DNA from: Octopus vulgaris
Lineage: Eukaryota
Length of the DNA stretch: 64,000 nt
Reading direction: 5' to 3'
Assembly (NCBI GenBank): GCA_951406725.2
Contig: OX597815.1
Span: 66,092,001-66,156,000 of the forward strand
Every line of letters begins with the position of its first letter. The stretch's first letter is position 1. Shown one piece after another: positions 1-17,081 of the stretch. The notes under the pieces were generated by a model. The model searched no databases. It saw only the letters and a list, made by a program, of their open reading frames with translations, and was not told the origin of the DNA. A program made the translations under genes and the position numbers.

Positions 1-1867
1 TAAATAATTTGTTTGATGGGTTTTATAAACAAGAACAAAATTCTAGCTACATTCATTGATCTGGAGTAGCTTTGACTGAAGATAAACACAACATGGTTGA
101 AAAATCTTTATCTCTAAGTCCCCTTGTGGATATGACGAACACACATTCCTCTGAAAGTATAACTTGTTCCCCGATAACGAAATACAACAATTAGTATATT
201 CACGTTTGAATCTGTCGAAACGTATTAAGAATGAATATGTATGCCACTGTTTTGATTTTCAACGCACATGAAAATTATTATCTTATTCTCATATTTCATA
301 AATAAAATTAAATGGACACTATTCCTACAATTTCAGTTTTTACTCTCTTTTACGAAAAGTATTTAAAATATTTGTAAGGACATCTAAATTGAGCTTGTCC
401 GAGCCACCAATGACCATGGGGCCGGCCCTAACCCTATTTGCACGTATGCTGCTAATGCACTGCTTCTTAAATGTCCTCCTCCTATCTAAACTCAACGTTC
501 TTGTGTATATTGTGGTGATGGTTGTGTTTTGTCCGTAATTCTAAGACGTTACTTTGAAAGCACTGAGAGTTTGGTCTTCACGTAATGATTCAACAATTGT
601 AAAAGTTACCTAATGTATCTCATTCTTGAACAATAATGTGAAGGTGAAAGTTGATTTTACCATTGATGTTGGCCATAAAATGGCTAATTTTGCATCGTAT
701 ACAACAAGGAACCTACATCATCAAGTATCTACTTGTTTAGACCTAGTTGAACTTGGCCTTTAAGAATGAATAGTTTTGGCCACGAATACAGCGTTGTGGT
801 GATGATAAAGACACAATAGTGTACTTAGTTCTGTTCTTCTTTATTCTTAAGGAAAATCCTACAATGGTCCAGTTTTTCATCGATCAATAAAATAAACTAT
901 CAATAAAACAATCTATCAGTCATGTGATCATGGTAATCTATCAGTGTAAAGAATTTGATTCACTTAAAAATTCGAGATACGCAATAGAAATAGCATCAAA
1001 TTAATAAAAACAGCTATGTACTATTATTACACGTCTTTACATCGTTGAGAAGTATGATGCTGTGGCTTTTATCCGGGAGAGAATCTCTTCAAAAACATGC
1101 CGTGTTAAAAAAAAACATAGATATATACATAAATGTGTGTGTGTGTGTATCATTAACACGAACACAATCACCAACAGTAATATATGATGAAGTAGATCAG
1201 CAAATTTGTTTCAAATAAAACATATAATGTGGTGATCTCCTCAGGCACGTGCCGTCAGTAATTACTCAAGGTAGGTAGTTGATGACGTTTATGTAGTAAA
1301 ACACACACACAAAAAGCGAAACACAGGCGCGCGACTGAGTTGTAGGCAAATTTACTTCTGCCTTTATAGTGCGTAAAGAAAACGTTGTTGCAGGAATGTA
1401 CGCAGATCGTGTACTACAGCAGTCCTATGTGTAGCTTTAATACTGAGATTGAAAGGCAGGGGCGGATTATGCCTACTTAATCTACAAAAAAAATTAAATA
1501 TTTTGTATTTATGCAGAGTAATCAGAGTAACCTTCATAATTTTATTGAATTAGGTCCATATTTTACCATAAAAGGAAAACGTTACTATTGAACTGGTTCT
1601 ATTGTATTTTAAAAGTTGAATGAAATGTCTTTGATCTTAAGTATATGAGGTTTGACTTGAGACTAAAGAGCCACAGCAATACAATTAGCAAGAACAATAT
1701 AACCCCACACCACCAAGAATACCTGACCACTATCATTAACTTCTAAACCAATGCAACCCATATCATCATCACTATCAACCCACCAGCCTTTGAATCCAAC
1801 AGGCTACAACAGATATCAGCATGTACGCCAACACATGTGTGTTCATGAGTGTGTGTATCTGTGTGTG

Positions 1868-2165
1868 GTGAAGGCGCTTGGGTTAGCGGTTAGGGTATTC
1901 GGATTACGATCTTGAGTTCAATTCCCCGCTGCGCGTTTTGTCCTTGCGCAAGACACTTTATTTCACTCTGCTCCAGTGCACTCAGCTGTATTTCAAAGAG
2001 CCAGTCTTGTCACGTTTTGTGTCTCGCTGAATCTCTCTGAGAATTACGTTAAGGTTACGTGTCCCTGTGCAATACTCCGCTACTTGCACTTTAATTTCAC
2101 AAGCAGGCTGTTCCATTGATCGGGTCGACTAAAACACTTGTCATTGTAACCGACGGAGTGCCAGT
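1868..2165 (+). mobile_element. tRNA-derived SINE (family C)
   Basis: A/B-box-like head (GGTTAGCGG...GAGTTCAATTCC) followed by GTCCTTG...AAGACACTTTATTTCAC; related copies near 30990-31230 (-) and 50395-50580 (+). Confidence 0.65.
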
Positions 2166-2210
2166 CTGTGTCTGTGTATGAGTGTATGAGTTGTGTGTGG
2201 TGTGGTGTGA

Positions 2211-2256
2211 TGGTGGTGGTGGTGGTGGTGGTGGTGGTGGTGGTGGTGGTGGTGGT

Positions 2257-2306
<50 letters not shown>
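2211..2306. repeat. compound microsatellite (GGT)n-(GT)n
   Basis: seen directly. Confidence 0.95.
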
Positions 2307-2308
<2 letters not shown>

Positions 2309-2986
2309 TGTATGTGATTACATTTAAAAAAGACTCATATACATTTATATTCATCGTTAGACATCAGAAAGAATCAGAAATGCAACAAAAAATTTAAATA
2401 TCTAGGTCAAATGAAAGAAGATAGATAATGGGAAAATGGCACATGATAGAAAATTAACGAAACTCAACAAAATCTAAAAACTCAACATAAAATATTCTCT
2501 ACAGCTTCTTTAGGATCTGTTAGAGTGAAACTCTTTCTGATGTATTTACGCATCATGCGAAAAGAAATTATTGAAATTAGACATTACTCATTTAGCCCCA
2601 CTTAAGACTATGGGAAAATTGACTTGGAATCGTACACAGAAAAGAATTTTAATCCTTAAACACTAAAAATTATCCAGATATTTTATTGGCAATCTCAATT
2701 ACATTCGGGTCAAATTCCAGGAAAAATTTCTTGTAAAAATAGTATCTGTCACCTGACTATTTCAAACTTACTCAGCAACAGCTATGCTAGCCAATTTAAC
2801 TCCCAAAAATGATGCAAAAGTACAAGATGATGATGATGCAATACTTGCAATGCAATGATCGTGGTATAATGCAGCAAGAAAATGAGTTGCTTCATCCAGT
2901 CTCATACAATTGCAGCGTGGGAGGTGTTTTTAAGCCATTTAAGAAACACACAAAACCGTTAGATTCACTTCAACATATAAATTTAA

Positions 2987-3037
2987 TTTGTCAAAATATT
3001 TTCATCGCTTTGAGACCGCGACTTGTTCACGGACAAA
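2987..3037 (-). ncRNA. second (inverted) copy of the G3-C8 hammerhead fold
   Basis: reverse complement reads TTTGTCC-GTGAACA-A-GTCGC-ggtctcaaa-GCGAT-GAAA-ATAT-TT-TGACAAA. Confidence 0.6.
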
Positions 3038-3059
3038 ACTTCGTGCTGCATCACGAAGT

Positions 3060-3110
3060 TTTGTCAGTGAACAGGTCGCGGTCTCAAAGCGACGAAAATA
3101 TTTTGACAAA
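3060..3110 (+). ncRNA. minimal type-I hammerhead ribozyme, G3-C8 core variant
   Basis: stem I TTTGTCA(3060-66)/TGACAAA(3104-10); core GTGAACA(3067-73); one extra G; stem II GTCGC/GCGAC; GAAA(3094-97); palindromic loop ATAT; UU cleavage site, predicted cut after 3103. Confidence 0.7.
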
Positions 3111-3435
3111 TTAAATTTATATGTTGAAGTGAATCTAACGGTTTTGTGTGTTGTTTCTTAAATGGCTTATAAACACCCTCCACACTGCAATTGTTTTCGT
3201 TCCAGCACACGATCTCAGATCAAGTCACTCGCTATGCAAGTACATCTCCGTAGTATATATATATATGAGAAATATAAAAATATATAAAAGGGGCAAAAAT
3301 ACTGGAGACTCTGTATGCACCACGTGGCAAAATTAAGAGTTGAAAATATGTGGAAAGCATATATAAAAAGTGGAAGAGAAATGCCTTCCTTTCACATAGC
3401 TTAATATTTTTTTATAAAGAAATTTTTTTTAAATA

Positions 3436-3851
3436 TGCGCAGGAGTGGCTGTGTGGTAAGTAGCTTGTCTACCAACCACATGGTTCCGGGTTCAGTCCCA
3501 CTGCGTGGCACCTTGGGTAAGTGTCTTCTACTATAGCCTCGGGCCGACCAGAGCCTTGTGAGTGGATTTGGTAGACGGAAACTGAAGAAGCCCGTCGTAT
3601 ATATCTATATATATATATATATATATATATGCGTATGTGTGTTTGTGTGTCTGTATTTGTCCCCTAGCATTGCTTGACAACCGATGCTGGTGTGTTTATG
3701 TCCCCGTCACTTAGTGGTTCGGCAAAAGAGACCAATAGAATAAGTACTGGGCTTACAAAAGAATAAGTCCCGGGGTCGAGTTGCTCGATTAAATGCGGTG
3801 CTCCAGCATGGCCGCAGTCAAATGACTGAAACAAGTAAAAGAGTAAAAGAG
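3436..3851 (+). mobile_element. tRNA-derived SINE (family A), full length, CpG-rich copy
   Basis: TGGCTGTGTGG A box, GGTTCAGTCCC B box, internal (TA)n/(GT)n, tail GAAACAAGTAAAAGAGTAAAAGAG; other copies near 6305-6596(-), 12713-13128(-), 16590-16975(+), 33735-34105(-), 41795-42180(+), 43995-44675(-), 58806-59203(-), 62425-62740(-). Confidence 0.85.
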
Positions 3852-3874
3852 TATATATTTTATGGATGTAGTGA

Positions 3875-3918
3875 TATCCTACCGGTTTTCGCTATTTAAA
3901 TTAGCTTTTCAAGGGACA
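3875..3918 (-). ncRNA. hammerhead-like motif, U3-A8 variant, in Penelope pseudo-LTR
   Basis: reverse complement reads TGTCC-C-TTGAAAA-GCTA-atttaaa-TAGC-GAAA-ACCGG-TA-GGATA; the partner copy at about 4530-4573 (+) has a damaged cleavage site. Confidence 0.55.
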
Positions 3919-4064
3919 CTGTGAAGTAATCAATTCTTGTGACAAAGGAAAGGGGTCTCGCCATTTTGGATGTTTGAAAAGTAAGAATGAGTCTAGTGGG
4001 TAGACCAAGGGAGGTAATAGGTGGCAAGGGGGAAACTAACTCTTCAGTATAATTTTTTAAGTGT

Positions 4065-4416
4065 TCAAGTTTGTATATTAAGGTGTGGTCTGTACTTTTG
4101 TATGAACAGGTTTTCCTTGTTTAAGCGTTCTTGTAAGGAGATTGAATTTTTGCATTGGTATAATGGAAAGATATGGAAATTCAGCGTTTTATTTCTTGCG
4201 CATCTGTTGATATGTTCACTCCTGGCTATCTGCCTGTATTGAGGAAAGCGAATCTGTTCTTTATGCAGCGTGACTCTGCGTCTCAAAGTAAGGCTCCTTT
4301 GGCCAACATAATTGTGGCCACAACCTGAGCAGGTTAGGACATAGATAAGGTTCTGAGAAGCACATGCGAAGTTGGTCTTAATGTTTCTCCTTGCTTTGAT
4401 GTGAATTCCGAGCCTT
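4065..4416 (-). pseudogene. Penelope-type GIY-YIG endonuclease C-terminal fragment
   Basis: in-frame extension of ORF 4065..4286 reads KTNFACASQNLIYVLTCSGCGHNYVGQRSLTLRRRVTLHK...ERLNKENLFIQKYRPHLN (LIY...CxxC...YVG...R...H...E...LN pattern). Confidence 0.85.
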
Positions 4417-4692
4417 CAGTTAGGTATGCCACCAGTTACCTCCCTTGGTCCACTCTCTAGACTCTTTCTTATTTTTCAAGTATCCAAAATAGTGACACTC
4501 CTTTGTCACAAGAATTGATTACTTCACAATGTCCCTTGAAAAGCTAATTTAAATAACGAAAACCGGGTGGATATCACTACATCCATAAAATATATATATA
4601 TTTTTAAAAATTTCTTTATAAAAAGATATTAAGCTATGTGAAAGGAAGGCATTTCTCTTCCACTTTTTATGTTTTCCACATATTTTCAACCT

Positions 4693-4693
4693 A

Positions 4694-4729
<36 letters not shown>

Positions 4730-4751
4730 TGTATGTATGTATGTATGTATG

Positions 4752-4840
<89 letters not shown>

Positions 4841-4855
4841 ATATATATATACACG

Positions 4856-4895
<40 letters not shown>

Positions 4896-4905
4896 TATAT
4901 ATATG
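4693..4905. repeat. compound microsatellite (ATGT)n-(AT)n-(AC)n
   Basis: seen directly. Confidence 0.95.
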
Positions 4906-5160
4906 AGACACCATGTTGTTTATCGTTTGTGCCAAGTAGTAACTGCGATGAAGAGATCAAATTTGTTAGTGAGTCAGTTTAAAAGTAACAAAAAGAAGAC
5001 AAGAAACGAAGATAAGAAACAAACATTTCATCTGTTGCGTCAGACCGGCATTCTTTCCTCTGCTCTCCTGCAGAAAATCACGTGTCAGTTTGATCAAGTT
5101 ACTCCTCACATACAGACTTCAGCAGCTCGACACAAGTAACACGCGTGCACACGCACACAC

Positions 5161-5212
<52 letters not shown>

Positions 5213-5578
5213 ATACACACACACAGACACACACACACATATATATATACAAATAGTACCAGCTCTGTAATACAGTGTAGCTTAACAGCTCAAGGCCATT
5301 ACAAGAAACACAAGCCTTTTTCCTTTTTAAATAAACCAAAAAGAAAAACAAGAAACAAACAAAAAAAAGCAACTGCTCTCTTCTGTTACTCAATCAACTA
5401 ATAAACATTCTCTTATACACCACAAACATTCACTTGTCTTTAAACCTTCATCTCTTGTTTCACTTTTGTCTCCTCCTCCTCCTTCTCCTCCTTCGCCTTT
5501 ACTTTTTGCTATTTTATCCCTTTATATCTAATTTTTGTTTACATTCATTCACATACTCTGTCTTGTCTGCTTTTTTCT

Positions 5579-5629
<51 letters not shown>

Positions 5630-8248
5630 CGTGTGACTGAGTGAGTGAGTGTCACTCTCTTAGTATCTCGCTATCTCTCCCTCTTCGTCTCCCTTCACAT
5701 CTCTCTTCCCATTCCCCCTTTCCCCTTCTCTTATCCCCACTACCCCTCTCGCCCCTTTTCCGTCTGTATATATATATGTCTGACTGTCTCCCCTCTTTCT
5801 GTCGCTCCTTCTCTCTCTGTCTCCCTCTCTCTCTATCTGTCTGCCTGTCTCCCCCAACTCTCTCTCAATTTCCTTCCTAAACATTTCTTCCCCGAATTCA
5901 TTTTCCTTTCGTCCCATCCCTCACCTCATTAAGTTACAATAACTCTTAGTTAAATATTTCACTTTAAATCGTAAACATTTTATCCCCACTACTACCGCCA
6001 CCACTACCCTACACTATCCCCTTTACAAAAAAATTCGAGGGTAGACAAGAGAATAGGGAAGCAAACGATCAGAGGTTCATATTGTGTCATCGGCAATGAA
6101 TTGAGTTTGTAGGTGAAGACGTTTTAAATATCAAACAAGTAGGTGAACGTAGCTGTAAACAGCTACAAGGAAGGCGTCCATGAGAAATTTAGCAAGCCGA
6201 AACAATACTGTCTCCGAGCGCAGGTAGTTGGGATAACTCTCTTATCTTTTGTACCGCCTTGAATGAATTTGGTCGAACAAATCGCCCACAGTACTTTTTT
6301 TTTTTAAAGTTTGGTATTTATTCTATCATTCTCTTTTACTGAACCGCTGAAGTGCAGGTACGTTAACAAACCAACACTGGTTGTCAAGTTGTGTGAGGGG
6401 GGGGACACAAACTCTGACGTCAAGATACACACACATAGATATAAACGACGTGCTTCCATAGTTTCCGTCGACCAAAATTCACTCACATAGCATTGATCAG
6501 CCTGGAGCTAGGACACTTGCTCGAGGTGTTGCGCAGTGAGACCGAACTCGAAAACACATGGTTGCAACGCGAGCTTCTTATAAAGCCGTACCTGTGCTTA
6601 GATGTTTAACAATGCTTAATCTGACTTCTGGCTTTAAATTTATATTGGACTGTAAATAGCTGAAAAAGTGTCGGTAAGAAAAATCATTTTATGTGGACAG
6701 AAACTATGTGTTCTGTGTATAAAAAGGATATTAGAATATTAAATCTACTTTGGATTATATAACTAGAAACGGAATCTTGAGTCACAGAAAAAAAAACTGA
6801 AAATTATGACATAACGTCAATTCAGAGAATTATAAAATTTGAAAGATTTTTGTTCAGTTCACTGAAATAATTAATTATAGTTATTACATGCATAGTGAAG
6901 TTGAAAATTCTATTAAAATTCATATAAATGTTTTCAAAAAGCTTTTGAGTAATGCAGACAAGAAGTTAGGCAAGCTATGTGAGATGATGTCAATAAATGA
7001 AAAAATGTTAAATATCGTATTATTTTACATAGATTCTTGTTTAATGATCCTATAATATGTCGGAAAACATTCCCCTTTCCAAACAGAAGAAAGAAAATAT
7101 TGAAAGAGCTCGTATAAATATGATGTTGCCAACTGGTTATTCAACTTCTCACCTGCATCGCTCAAAGGTATTTTCAAACATTTATATCACGCACCATTAC
7201 AATGTCTCAAGTAAATTACATTCTATTATAATAATCAACGTTGTCAAATGTTGGTCATAAAAGGTGGTCATTTCAACATTTCAGATATTTAAATTCTCCA
7301 ACATCTCTATTCATTTAAATAACCAATTCTAAATCTCTCAGAAGCGAATATTTTTCTAGAAGTGAGATCACTAAATGTTATAAATTTGATCATACTGACG
7401 GCGATCGAGAGAATTTAAGATTCTGACAGATTTCTATTCCAATAAATAATCAAGTTTTAACAGATCTAGATTTATGAAACTAAGATATTTTCATCTTTAT
7501 GTGTGACTTAAAATTATTTATCTCCATCATTTTACGTCCATCAAAAAATGATTATATTCTTATATTCGCAATTGCGAAAACTTGTGAATTTTGTCAAGTC
7601 AATGACCTAATTTTAATAGATTTGACTCTGATTACTGATGGAATTTTAAATGTTCACTCTCTGGCTGGTTATAGATTATAAATTGAAACACATCTCTTCT
7701 TGAAATCCAATACTTACTTTAGAAGAACGGAAGTAAAGGTTAACCTATTCACTTATAGAGCAAAAGTAATGATGCCGCTTTCATGACTGAACTAGGGCTC
7801 TTGCAGAAATGCTCTTGGGTACTTAGAATCTTCGATACAGAATACCATTTCTAAAACAATAAAGATTTTCATATGATTTTAAAGATAAATCTAAAAACAA
7901 TTGTGAAAGATATTCCTTTTTTTTTTTTTTTACCTTTATCATTTCTTTCTACAAACTTACTACCAAACAGTTGCGCTGTCATAACAATATGGGACAAAAT
8001 ACGTAACATCTTCAATACTACTTTCAATGAATTCTCTAGAGAGTGCACTTCTTATGCCCAGACTACTCAAATTCTACCCCTTTCAGCCACATAAATGGAG
8101 CTATAAAGTTATGTAAATGAGGACTCATTTAGATTCGTTTCCTATTACTTATTGTTCCCAGCCAGCATTTCTAATCTACTATAAATTACCATTTTCACTA
8201 CGTCAGTCACAAATTTTGCTTTCAAAATTCTGGGTATGTAGTTAAGTA

Positions 8249-11200
8249 TATAATAATAATAATGTTCGTCCTTCGGGTTCGAAGATGACCATTGACATCA
8301 TTTGGTGGAATTGCTGCTATGAGACCGGAGGTGGCTGGTGAGGCCAATCCGGGCAAGAAAGCCCCTCCCACAGGTGGGGCAGAAGTGGGTAGGGGCTGTG
8401 CTATTGGCTTTCCGCATCTGGCGTTTCTGTTCTGCTGACTGAATCCGTCTCTCCTCGGCTGTCTTTGCTCCTCTGGTGATTGCGCTGCGCCAGGATGAGC
8501 GGTCGGCAGCAAGTGTCTCCCAAGTCTCTGTTCCGATGGAGAAGTCTTTGAGAGAGACTTTGAGACTGTCCTTGAAGCGCTTCTTCTGCCCTCCGACTTT
8601 GCGTTTGCCCTGGCTGAGTTCACCGTAGAAGAGCTGTTTTGGGATGCGAGTCGGACATGCGGGAGACGTGGCCTGCCCATCTCAGCTGGGCCTTGCGCAT
8701 GATCGTGATGGTGCTAGGGAGATCTGCCTGCTTCAGAACTTCCGTGTCTGGGACTTTGTCCTGCCAGCGGATGTGAAGGAGGTTCCGAAGACACCTGAGG
8801 TGGAAGTGGTTTATCTGGCGCTCGTGCCTTCGGTAAGCAGTCCACGTCTCGCAGCCGTATAGTAGGGTGGCAAGCACGACTGCCCGGTAGACTTTCAGCT
8901 TGGTGTTGAGGCTGATTCCTCTCCGCTCCCAGACTTTCTTTCGCAGTCTCCCAAACGCGCTGCTTGCATTGGAGATTCTGTTGATAATTTCAGCATCTAT
9001 GTTGGCATTGCAGGAGAGAGTGCTGCCTAGGTAGGTGAAGTTTTCCACCGCTCGTAGGATCCGTCCGTTCACCTTTATCTGAGGCTCATGGTATTGTTTG
9101 CCGGGGGCTGGCTGAAACATCACTTCGGTTTTCTTGGCACTGACGGTGAGACCGAAGTTGTCACAGGCTGATGAGAACCTGTCCATCCCGAGCTGCATCT
9201 CCTGCTCATCGATTGCGTTAAGGGCGCAATCGTCAGCAAAGAGAAAGTCTCTGACGACTGTCTCCCTCACCTTTGTGACGGCCTGCAATCTTCTGGAGTT
9301 GAAAAATTTCCCGTCCGTCCTGTACTTGATGTCGATACCGGACTTGTAGTCCCTGAAGGCGTCGGACAGCATTGCTGAGAATATGATGCTGAACAGTGTT
9401 GGGGCCAGGACACAGCCCTGCCTGACTCCGTTGGTCACCTGGAAGACTTCAGATGAGTTGCCGTCTTCAAGGACTCTGGCTGTCATTCCGTCGTGGAACT
9501 GGCAGACAATTGCAATAAATTTGCTGGGGCAACCAAATTTTCCCATAACCTTCCAGAGTCCCTCCCGACTGACTGTATCGAAAGCCCTGGTGAGGTCAAC
9601 AAAGGTCATGCAGAGGTCAAGGTGCTGCTCCATGCATTTCTCCTGGAGCTGGCGGGCGGCGAATATCATGTCAGTGGTCCCTCGGCCCGCGCGGAAGCCA
9701 CACTGGATCTCAGGGAGAAGGCCTTGCTCCAAGTGTTCCAGAAGGCGGTCAAGCAAGACTCGGGCCAGGATCTTGCCTGCTATGGACAAGAGGGAGATTC
9801 CTCGGTGGTTGTCGCAGGACTGGCGATCTCCATTCCGCTTATAAATGTGGACGATTGTTGCGTCCCGGAAATCTTGAGGGAGTTGTTCCCTGTCCCACAT
9901 CGACTGAAACAGGCTGGTGAGCTGACTGATCATGGTAGGGCCGCCCGACTTGAACACCTCTGCAGGGATGGCGTCAGAGCCTGGAGATTTGCCGGTGGAC
10001 ATTTTTTTTATGGCTCTGCTCACTTCCTCAACTGCAGGGGGAACAGCCAGCTCGTGGTTTGTCGGCACCTGGGGGAGTCGTGCGATGGCTTCCTCGTTGA
10101 TCTGGGCTGGTCGGTTGAGCACGATGTTGAAATGCTCCGCCCATCTCTCCAGGATCAGCCTCTTGTTAGTCAGGAGTGAGGTTCCATCCGAGCTGAGCAG
10201 GGGATTGATCCAAAGGAGGACTACGGTCCATAGACAGCTTTCAGCGCCTCGTATAATTTCTTGGTGTCGTGTTTGTCTGCGTATCCCTGAATCTCATCCG
10301 CCTTGGCGCTTAACCATGCGTCTTGCATGAGGCGGAGTTTTGCCTGGACTGTGCTGCGAAAGTTGTTGAAAGCAGCCTTCTTTGCCGTGCAGGTAGTGTC
10401 ATTTTGGTGGGCCCGCAGCAGACGGCGTTTCTCTTCCAGGAGCTTTTGGATTTCCTGGTCGTTTTCGTCGAACCAGTCCTGGTGGTTCCTCGTAATTTGG
10501 CCTAGAGTTTCAAGGGCGATGGAATGAACCGTGTCCCTGAATGATTCCCACTGCTCATCGATGCTGGACTGGTCATTCCGAATGTCCAACAGCTTGCTGT
10601 CCATACGTGACTGGAGATCTTGTGCAGTCAGCTGGTTCTTTAATTTCGTGATGTTAAGCTTCCTCGTCACTTTCTGACCCTGTGGTCTTCTCTTAGGTTG
10701 GATGTAGAAATCCATCCTGGAGATGATGAGGTGATGGTCCGTCCAGCAATCAGCTCCACACATGGCTTTGACCAGTCTCACGTCCCGCCTGTCTTTCGCC
10801 CTGCCGATGACGTAATCTATCAGATGGCAGTGTTTGGAGCGTGGATGCATCCATGATGTCTTGTTGCGTGTTGGCAGACGGAACAAGGTGTTGGCGATGG
10901 TAAGATCATGAGAGGCGCACGCCCGCAGGAGGAGCTGCCCGTTGTTGTAGCACTTTCCGATTCTTTGCTTTCCCAGTACGCGATGCCAGGCTTGGTGGTC
11001 AGTCCCGACACGGGCGTTAAAGTCCCCAAGGAGGATGAGCTTCCCAGGCTGGGCTGACGTGATGAGGGAGTCGAGTTCCTCATAGAACCTGTCCTTAACT
11101 TCTTCAGGGTTGGTCATGGTGGGGGCGTAAGCGCTGATGATGGTCGCACTAGTCTTGTTTCCAAGTGGGAGCTGCATCTTCATCAGCCGATCGTTGATAC

Positions 11201-12215
11201 CCTCGGGGGAGCTTTCCAGTTTCCGCACGTGTACTGACTTGATGGCAAAACCAACACCAGCCTCACGACGCTCTTCGCTGCTGCGACCACTCCAAAAGAA
11301 AGTGTAGCCGCCGCCTGTCTCTGTCAGCTGGCCTTTGTCCGCAAGGCGGGTCTCGCTCAGTACTGCGATATCGACATTGTATCGGCTCAGTTCTCTGGCC
11401 ACCAAGGCAGTTCGTCTCTCTGGTCTGTCCGCTTTGGTGTTATCAAGCAGAGTTCTCACGTTCCAAGTTGCGAAAGTGAGCACCTTTGTTCGTTTTCTTT
11501 CTTTGTTTCGACCGCTTGGAAAGGATCCCCGCCAGCCGCGATTTGCTGACCAGGGTGAGGTGAGGCAGGCTATGTTTAGGGCAACCTTTTCTAGCCCCGT
11601 CCTCATGCTGCGGAGACGAGCAGAGCGATCCTGAAGAGGGCTGCTCGGTCACTCAGGAGGTTGCCGGACTCCACTGCTGCCTCAGTTCAGTGAGGGGCGA
11701 CCACATGTCCTGAGCCGCCTGTGTGTGGGTTCACGACTGCAGCTCCCAGTGTATCCTCACCTGCTACTTCGCCGTTTCCCCATCGCCACAGGACTTTGTG
11801 ATGTTGGTGTCATGATGTCATGACGTGCACGTGACTTGGATTATAGTGAGGGTGACTTGCGCAGGATCAGCCTCACTCTCTCGTCCTGGTGCGCCGGATC
11901 CAGTGGCAAGACAAAGTCAAGACGGCTGGGGGTAGACCAGGATGCAGGAGCTGCCGGAAGGTGGCACGCATGGCGCAATCCAACCGCCTTAGGGGCTCCA
12001 CTCCGGATTTATGTAGGTTTTTGGATGGCCATTGACTCATGAGAGAGTTCCTCTGCCCTTTGACAGGTTTTGTTTTTAGTCCTGCTGGGTGTCCAAATCA
12101 CCCTCCTCACCAAGAAATCTTGGTGGGGTTTTGCCAGTTTAGTCGCCAACGACCCGACCGTGTAACAGGTTGTACTGGGTTACATGTTACCAGTAGCTCC
12201 AAGCGGAGACCTGAC
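8249..12215 (-). mobile_element. near full-length RTE-clade LINE (about 4 kb) with 5' UTR, APE-RT ORF and (ATT)n tail
   Basis: GC-rich island; APE motifs TWNVRTL, LSETR, LLGDFNARVG, LIDY, TDH; RT motifs GVRQGCVLAP and LFADD; short 3' UTR followed by (ATT)n. Confidence 0.95.
8298..11606 (-). pseudogene. RTE endonuclease-reverse transcriptase ORF, disrupted
   Basis: ORF 10221..11606 (APE) ends at a TAG with a frameshift at about 10205 (PLLSSDGTSLLTNKRLILERWAEHF continues in the frame of ORF 8620..10122); a second frameshift at about 8642 leads to PKQLFYGEL...CPTCGRGFLARIGLTSHLRSH (C2H2) and TGA at 8298-8300. Confidence 0.9.
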
Positions 12216-16230: not shown

Positions 16231-16568
16231 ATATATAGAAAATAGTAAAGAGTGAAAAAACTACAGAAGGCTTAAATGTTAAGAAATATATATATTTGAG
16301 TCAATATGTCTGAAGAATATTAGAAAATTTAAAAAAAATTTTTTTTTCTCTTATAATGACATAATTTAAAAGAAAGACCGGTTTTGCGTGTAAGAAATTT
16401 GAAAAGCTACACGCGAAACCGGTCTTTCTTTTAAATTATGTCATTATAAGAGAAAAAAAATTTTTTTTTTAATTTTCTAATATTCTTCAGACATATTGAC
16501 GCAAATATATATATTTTTTAACATTTAAGCCTTCTGTAGTTTTTTCACTCTTTACTATTTTCTATATA
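16231..16568. repeat. long palindrome (about 160-bp arms) with a hammerhead at its centre
   Basis: 16231-16392 is the reverse complement of 16408-16568. Confidence 0.9.
16392..16430 (+). ncRNA. minimal type-I hammerhead fold, U3-A8 variant
   Basis: AAGAAA-T-TTGAAAA-GC-tacac-GC-GAAA-CCGG-TC-TTTCTT; palindromic loop III CCGG; predicted cut after 16424. Confidence 0.65.
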
Positions 16569-17081
16569 TATATATATATACTTCCCAACAATATGTATGG
16601 TTCCGAGTTTGGTCCCACTGCGTGGTACCTTGGTCAAGTGTCTTTTACTATTACCTCGGGCTGACCAAAGCCGTGTGAGTGGATTTAGTAGACGGCAACT
16701 GAAAAAAACCTGTGGTATGTGTGCGTGTGTGTGTGTGTATGTATGTAGCTATGTGTATGTCTCTTTGTGTCTGTGAGTGTCGCCCCATCAGTGCTTGACA
16801 ACCGGTGCTGGTGTGTTTACATCCCAGTAACTAGCAGCGGTTCAGCAAAAAAAGAAATGTGATAGAATAAGTACCAGGCTTAAAAAATAAGTCTTAGGTC
16901 GATTTGTTCGACTAAAACCCGTAACGCGATGCTCCAGCATGGCCGTAGTCAAATGACAGAAACAAAAGAATAAGATAATATATATGAATATTAATCATAT
17001 ATGCGTATGTACGTGTGTGTGTGTGTGTCTGAGTGTGTGTGTCTATGTATGTGTGTGTCTGTGTGTGATTGTGTGTGTCTC

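Follow-up and report, generated by a model that had tools for sequence, protein, structure and literature searches.

Minimal type I hammerhead ribozymes are known from Penelope-like elements (PLEs). As described by Cervera and De la Pena (2014, PMC4209133), they lie in the pseudo-long terminal repeats (pseudo-LTRs) of the elements, with an extra nucleotide that separates positions 9 from 10.1, a G10.1-C11.1 pair, a palindromic stem III and loop and a UH cleavage site, and they form opposite-strand pairs in truncated copies. They cut weakly and as dimers (PMC4209133; reviewed in PMC6765202), and a dimer model has been described for them, in agreement with what a preliminary description of the present locus had stated. 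This locus is part of a 64,000-nucleotide stretch of the Octopus vulgaris genome (contig OX597815.1; the whole stretch is called the window here), and carries the end of a PLE that we call family A. The motif in the pseudo-LTR of family A is alike in its location, in the structural features just listed and in the opposite-strand pairs. However, the pair between core positions 3 and 8 is C3-G8 or U3-A8 in PMC4209133, and G3-C8 in family A. It is likely that the family motif represents a naturally occurring form of a self-cutting RNA and escapes standard searches.

The motif is real in the sense that the window sequence can be parsed as a minimal type I hammerhead, with the coordinates first proposed (Table 1). 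The literal consensus CUGANGA...GAAA...UH fails at positions 3 and 8 alone, and the rest matches. In a descriptor scan of the window with any bases allowed at these two positions, the right-hand copy was the sole match. The left-hand copy, on the opposite strand, has the same core and three private changes, which the preliminary description had noted only in part. A C at position 2.1 creates a C-U mismatch beside the cut site and leaves a stem I of 6 bp, against 7 bp in the right copy; an A occupies the extra position; and a U at 11.1 turns the 10.1-11.1 pair into a G-U wobble. The G/A difference at the extra nucleotide had been taken as the variability expected of a bulge. This does not hold for the family: the position is conserved, with G in 26 of 26 covered copies of family A (in a sample picked by a flank word) and also in the sister families, whereas the consensus in PMC4209133 has H. 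On all testable structural features, the motif as read from its letters groups with the minimal type I hammerheads of PLEs, and it fails only the literal CUGANGA and Rfam.

That G3-C8 defines a natural, Penelope-linked hammerhead family, invisible to CUGANGA-based searches, is supported by the comparison between families. The scaffold pattern has 12,972 matches in the genome, against 8 for the reversed control; 6,248 of the matches are G3-C8 (with A9) and 5,363 are C3-G8. Families B, C and D have C3-G8 in the same scaffold and at the same position of the element. The core is CTGAAGA in family B (L143, L124) and CTGATGA or CTGAAGA in family C (L144, L118, L130), which shares stems I and II, the extra G, GAAA and UU with family A; in family D, which is young and intact and whose open reading frames (ORFs) comprise about 1,310 codons, the core reads CTGATG and then C or A. 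The ORF-start peptides and both 3' ends of the sister families line up with those of family A, and the two preferred 3' ends are also seen in family D, so that the motifs of families A to D are positional homologues. For families B and C, this peptide and the 3' ends are the link, as no ORF of their own was found within 1.5 kb. Families A and D are 53% identical in the reverse transcriptase (RT) and 48% in the endonuclease (EN). An older and decayed family, E, keeps G3-C8 but has C at position 7, a loop III of 2 nt and a loop II unlike that of family A. The pattern with C at position 7 and with positions 3 and 8 free has 64 matches, which were tallied by hand as 36 G-C, 5 C-G, 2 C-C and no G-G, the other 21 being decay-type changes. 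Among 21 PLE-related metagenome loci, 7 contain a credible minimal hammerhead (5 C-G, 1 U-A and 1 A-U), and none of these has G3-C8; one G-C parse, with a 39-nt stem II region, was discarded as spurious. The A3-U8 core (L335:1118, a locus that matches PLEs only weakly) and the U3-A8 core (L319:1239) were each found once in this set.

The stems and the 3-8 pair covary across families. The alignment consists of 18 hand-chosen real copies, 17 of them distinct and the rows related, so that its figures are not a probability. Positions 3 and 8 are paired in 17 of 17 distinct copies (C-G in 11, G-C in 5, U-G in 1), and 90% of the alignment cells pair, against 30-50% in slid controls. Stem II is 97.6% paired, with one pair that runs G-C, G-U, A-U; the 15.2-16.2 pair is A-U, G-U or G-C; stem I is weaker across families (78.8% paired, with bulges in B and D). 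Two trees of 30 copies were built, one that includes the motif and one from which the first 60 bases, and with them the motif, had been left out; in both, A and E fall on one branch, with support of 100/99 and 100/100, respectively. By its distribution, G3-C8 marks one clade, which includes the older family E, family A and a young subfamily. The trees are unrooted, and one derived origin is the simplest reading, given C3-G8 in the sister families and in five of the seven hammerhead-bearing metagenome loci.

A clade-wide G3-C8 pair might also be an accident, if two neutral substitutions in a dead motif had been amplified by a source element. Family A stems from few sources, so that its thousands of copies count as few events, and the tree indicates one origin. 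Moreover, the excess conservation of the core over the flanks that had been looked for within the family is absent (10/315 differences in the core, 51/1232 in the flank, p=0.52). The latter test is uninformative, since the copies are dead and no excess is to be expected among them. An accident nevertheless seems highly improbable. By a rough estimate, two changes spread over the 13 core positions would fall on exactly 3 and 8, and be complementary, with a chance of 0.004, and the pair has persisted through E, A and the young subfamily while the loops changed.

The chemistry of the swap is known from other hammerheads. C3 and G8 pair in the active fold, and a single C3G or G8C change abolishes cleavage (PMC8495972), whereas activity comes back in part when C3G and G8C are combined, and this holds too for a Penelope hammerhead, one that cleaved only when its protein was present (PMC11167929), as expected if, as first argued for this locus, a compensatory swap can keep activity. 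The latter hammerhead is that of PAc, a Poseidon element of Anolis carolinensis (Frangieh et al. 2024). The same 3-8 combination is thus a laboratory mutant in PAc and a natural clade state in the octopus, and it appears as an engineered mutant in PMC8495972 and PMC3884650 as well. Natural covariation of the pair has been described in the form of U3-A8 hammerheads (Perreault et al. 2011, PMC3088659), which is a different pair; section 8 of that paper names no G3-C8 example. The 56 aligned representatives in PMC4209133 comprise 53 CUGA and 3 UUGA, none with GUGA, and include no cephalopod row. We found no natural G3-C8 hammerhead in the literature, of which coverage was incomplete, and an earlier report may exist in Lunse et al. 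(RNA Biol 14:1499), in Przybilski and Hammann 2007 or in one supplementary file of PMC4209133. Apart from Craig et al. (2021, PMC8557442), no paper on octopus PLE hammerheads was found. What is distinctive here is the copy number, together with the canonical sister families in the same genome.

Family A has a coding parent. The right arm at the window locus is a dispersed repeat, with 1,581 first-look candidates in the 2.8-Gb genome (the best 40 scored 94-97%) and 4,072 exact genome matches to a 23-mer from its flank. Longer copies run upstream, via about 1 kb of microsatellite-rich DNA, into the C-terminus of an endonuclease. The loci that match this end hold an RT (YVDD), a CX3CXXC linker (TCQNNCAVC) and a GIY-YIG domain with a CCHH motif, in which C..C lies between the GIY- and YIG-like halves and H..H downstream. 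The GIY-YIG domain matches Pfam PF01541 (E 9e-5); the Pfam search gave no RT match in two element proteins. Of 20 ORF-end loci, 11 (the query locus among them) carry the motif on the strand of the ORF, some 1-1.3 kb downstream of its GIY-YIG stop. Twelve further stretches were fetched; the RT and EN motifs share an open frame in six, and in seven a G3-C8 motif follows the stop at a distance of about 1 kb. Six copies of this kind agree with one another to 98.2-99.9% over RT-EN, so that the lineage has moved recently. The motif also sits before the ORF. In L386, it is followed by the ATG that is seen at window position 3162, and in both L386 and L394 the tail continues into the N-terminus of the ORF, with 34% identity to the counterpart in family D, which is intact (E values of 4e-40 and 1e-33). 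The order in the element is motif, 59 nt, ORF start, RT, CX3CXXC linker, GIY-YIG, about 1 kb, motif again, and tail.

Two further observations concern the longer copies. In L386:1190-1225, L002, L026 and L030, a branch-point-like CTAAC, a pyrimidine run and an AG are found about 15 nt before stem I, with the microsatellite-rich kilobase upstream, and could reflect an intron in the 5' untranslated region, as in Drosophila Penelope; spliced reads were not observed. Of the 40 ORF-end matches of family A that score best, 24 fall on contig C16, about 2% of the genome, a share that best-match selection may bias. Chromosome 16 is reported as the Z chromosome of O. vulgaris (10.1101/2024.12.09.627507), and contig C16 may correspond to it.

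With RT and GIY-YIG in one ORF, a pseudo-LTR with an inverted 5'-truncated copy and a tail equal to the ORF start, family A has the anatomy of a PLE with C-terminal endonuclease of the Neptune/Nematis type, a placement that is based on anatomy. Like the Neptune and Nematis elements of PMC8557442, it has an RT followed by a Cys linker (CX2-5CXXC there) and a GIY-YIG domain with CCHH, and it shares with the elements of that study the partial tandems, the inverted 5'-truncated copy, the tail and the microsatellite targets. It differs in the length of the tail, about 58 nt in the octopus and 30-40 bp in PMC8557442, and in its non-canonical motif, which would fail the 'cuganga' descriptor used there. 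PAc resembles family A in its tail, the limits of which are two RT start sites within the beginning of the ORF, and in its AT-rich targets (PMC11167929). However, it belongs to a different PLE clade, Penelope/Poseidon, which is without the Cys linker that the octopus family has, and its ORF starts inside stem II, whereas the octopus ORF starts 59 nt after the predicted cut site.

The preliminary description was right to link the motif to Penelope, but its picture of a non-autonomous, retrozyme-like element does not agree with a parent that encodes RT and GIY-YIG. Non-LTR retrozymes (Li et al. 2026, 10.64898/2026.07.22.740005) also have a type I hammerhead and an origin in PLE pseudo-LTRs; they are tandem non-coding arrays, whereas the octopus family is dispersed. 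That the window copy is a retrozyme-like element or a palindromic miniature inverted-repeat transposable element (MITE), with its two motifs as a functional pair, would suit the short, ORF-less state of most copies and the resemblance of the window copy to a terminal inverted repeat. We consider this scarcely credible. In a sample of 30 copies (the first 30 places on contig C1), the inverted partial copy directly upstream is present in 19 and absent in 11, and it varies in length; the 5' ends of family A copies are ragged, and the long copies continue into RT-EN. The loci read contained no head-to-tail arrays of the 205-nt unit. Retrozyme identity is contradicted by the dispersed or inverted copies with their coding parent, and a MITE or palindromic DNA transposon by arms that vary and are often absent, where fixed terminal inverted repeats would be required.

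At positions 2906-3252, the window carries an insertion of the end of a PLE encoding RT and C-terminal GIY-YIG; the insertion is 5'-truncated and accompanied by a partial duplicate in inverted orientation. The palindrome that had been reported for positions 2907-3193, centred on the motif pair, exists with very nearly this extent (Table 1). The left arm terminates at the 'short' 3' end, without the tail; among the 30 sampled copies, the 3' end is long in 14, short in 14 and other in 2. The 30-codon peptide at the end of the right arm can be aligned with the beginning of the ORF in families B, C, D and E. At 3120/2977, a private T is present in both arms, and the other base makes up about 99% of the contig depth there (assembled contigs of four sequencing runs). 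Minor subfamily bases are often shared between arms in the 81 arm pairs compared: at position 3116, the two arms match in 52 of 56 covered pairs, with the minor base in 5 of the matching pairs, and at position 3106, they match in 41 of 52, with the minor base in 8. These data indicate that both window arms derive from one template. The agreement of the two copies, which had been offered as support, and the G/A 'bulge' are therefore not independent evidence.

Table 1. Coordinates of the motif, the insertion and its surroundings (window positions)
Feature	Position	Strand	Basis or remark
Right hammerhead, minimal type I	3060..3110	+	Parse of window sequence
Right copy, stem I, 7 bp	3060-3066/3104-3110	+	
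Right copy, core GTGAACA	3067-3073	+	G3 = 3067, C8 = 3072
Right copy, extra G	3074	+	Between core and stem II
Right copy, stem II, 5 bp	3075-3079/3089-3093	+	
Right copy, GAAA	3094-3097	+	
Right copy, palindromic ATAT	3098-3101	+	
Right copy, U16.1	3102	+	
Right copy, U17	3103	+	Predicted cut after 3103
Left hammerhead, G3-C8 core	2987..3037	- (read 3037 to 2987)	Alignment with right copy; three private substitutions
Palindrome arms	2945-3048/3049-3152		96% complementary; fold reaches about 2906/3194
Inverted, 5'-truncated partial copy of element end (left arm)	2906..3048	-	Alignment; 92% identical to right arm over 146 nt
3' end of Penelope-like element, family A (pseudo-LTR end and tail)	3049..3252	+	Sharp 3' end at 3252; dispersed genomic matches
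First 30 codons of element ORF	3162..3251	+	ATG at 3162; cut off at insertion end
Tail between two preferred 3' ends, about 58 nt	3195..3252	+	3'-end counts in 30 sampled copies
(TA)n run at insertion end, likely target site	3254..3267	.	Many copies have comparable AT-rich or (TA)n flanks

On this evidence, the G3-C8 motif of the pseudo-LTR is probably a slow self-cleaving ribozyme that would act in full-length tandem transcripts and not at the window locus. With more reserve, we lean towards the fuller statement that it is an active natural G3-C8 hammerhead in a long-lived octopus Penelope clade, the first high-copy animal case, with a fold that is selected in vivo. The double change would have been fixed in a source element because the active fold needs a Watson-Crick pair between positions 3 and 8. 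Two motifs, either in the tandem pseudo-LTRs of one precursor or in two RNAs, would pair through A-AUAU-U and so build stem III, probably with help from the element's protein. By a cut after U17, the precursor would be trimmed a short way upstream of its ORF. Short copies, which number thousands and include the one in the window, would result from reverse transcription that began at either of two sites within the beginning of the ORF, and would decay neutrally in the genome.

A number of observations weigh against catalysis by the family motif. The Rfam scan of window positions 1-8000 at E<=5 gave only repeat-driven microRNA matches and no hammerhead. In the minimum-energy fold of the 209-nt unit, stem II is present and stem I is absent. 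Cofolding of two motifs did not reproduce the stem III dimer, although cofolding and duplex energies are crude for this topology. No wholly unbroken family A ORF was found among the fetched copies (L394 has one stop, L386 several breaks). At the window locus itself, each strand holds a single sense motif, and in energy folding an RNA across the whole palindrome forms one hairpin of -218.6 kcal/mol. For both reasons, the locus is very likely inert, and the divergent pair is not the functional unit that had been proposed. Family D (L210:50-100, and the family generally) mostly has C9 in place of A9, which indicates that core letters can change in a young, intact family without stopping transposition; the more diverged family D copies have A9. 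Finally, G3-G8 copies number 209, which is above the expectation from the mutation spectrum at G3. By hand count in the first 100 listed matches, C8G (about 19) and C8A (about 15) are similarly frequent at position 8, window 3072, whereas at position 3, also counted by hand, G3C occurs at about a quarter of the frequency of G3T. The inverted partners of G3-G8 copies have kept C8 in 11 of 13 cases, so that G3-G8 looks like a later mutation.

The G8 state itself occurs in 4 of 13 older-type copies and in 0 of 87 younger-type copies. The C-to-G excess at position 8 is mostly confined to one arm, and both a mutation hotspot and a minor source may account for it. An intermediate source lineage with G3-G8 was rejected in view of the C8 in the inverted partners and of the several subfamily backgrounds on which G8 is found.

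The same observations raise the question whether a hammerhead-derived motif might have been kept for structure or protein binding, or merely inherited, with a swap that keeps the fold and negligible cutting in vivo. The anole element provides a parallel: hammerhead mutants were without effect on its insertion in vitro, and no RNA-seq reads ended at the cut site (PMC11167929). The A9C change in young family D, the weak activity of minimal PLE hammerheads (PMC4209133) and the success of Naiads without canonical hammerheads (PMC8557442) point in the same direction. This account nonetheless seems unlikely to us. U4, G5, A6, A9, G12, A13, A14, A15.1, U16.1 and the UH site have been kept in families A and E over a branch of about 0.5 changes per flank column, and positions 3 and 8 form a tertiary pair in the active fold (PMC3088659, PMC8495972). 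We therefore still prefer a family motif that cuts, if slowly.

Other parts of the window contain features that are separate from family A. Positions 3852-4596 hold a second, unrelated insertion with inverted arms around a weak PLE endonuclease match. Its arms have a hammerhead-like motif with a U3-A8-like core, a 4-bp stem II, GAAAA and a CCGG palindrome, in a parse that needs one or two extra nucleotides; the element has 300 first-look candidates in the genome, and the motif is similar in the 25 loci read. A near-perfect palindrome at 16231-16569 (162-nt arms, 97%) gave no hammerhead parse in the window descriptor scan. The block at 8001-12000 is GC-rich (52-55%, against about 35%) and is probably another retroelement.

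Hammerheads are nearly universal in Penelope elements, cut poorly in vitro and were dispensable for insertion in one reconstituted system. A compensatory 3-8 swap that is fixed in one clade, beside canonical sisters, is evolutionary evidence that the active fold matters. The octopus families supply matched natural constructs, namely G3-C8, C3-G8, and C3-G8 with C9. As G3-C8 outnumbers C3-G8 in the scaffold pattern (6,248 to 5,363), search descriptors should leave the 3-8 pair free. If our reading is correct, surveys based on CUGANGA would miss about half of the hammerheads of this scaffold in the octopus genome, and the persistence of G3-C8 beside its C3-G8 sisters would show that the catalytic fold is selected in vivo, despite being dispensable in vitro.
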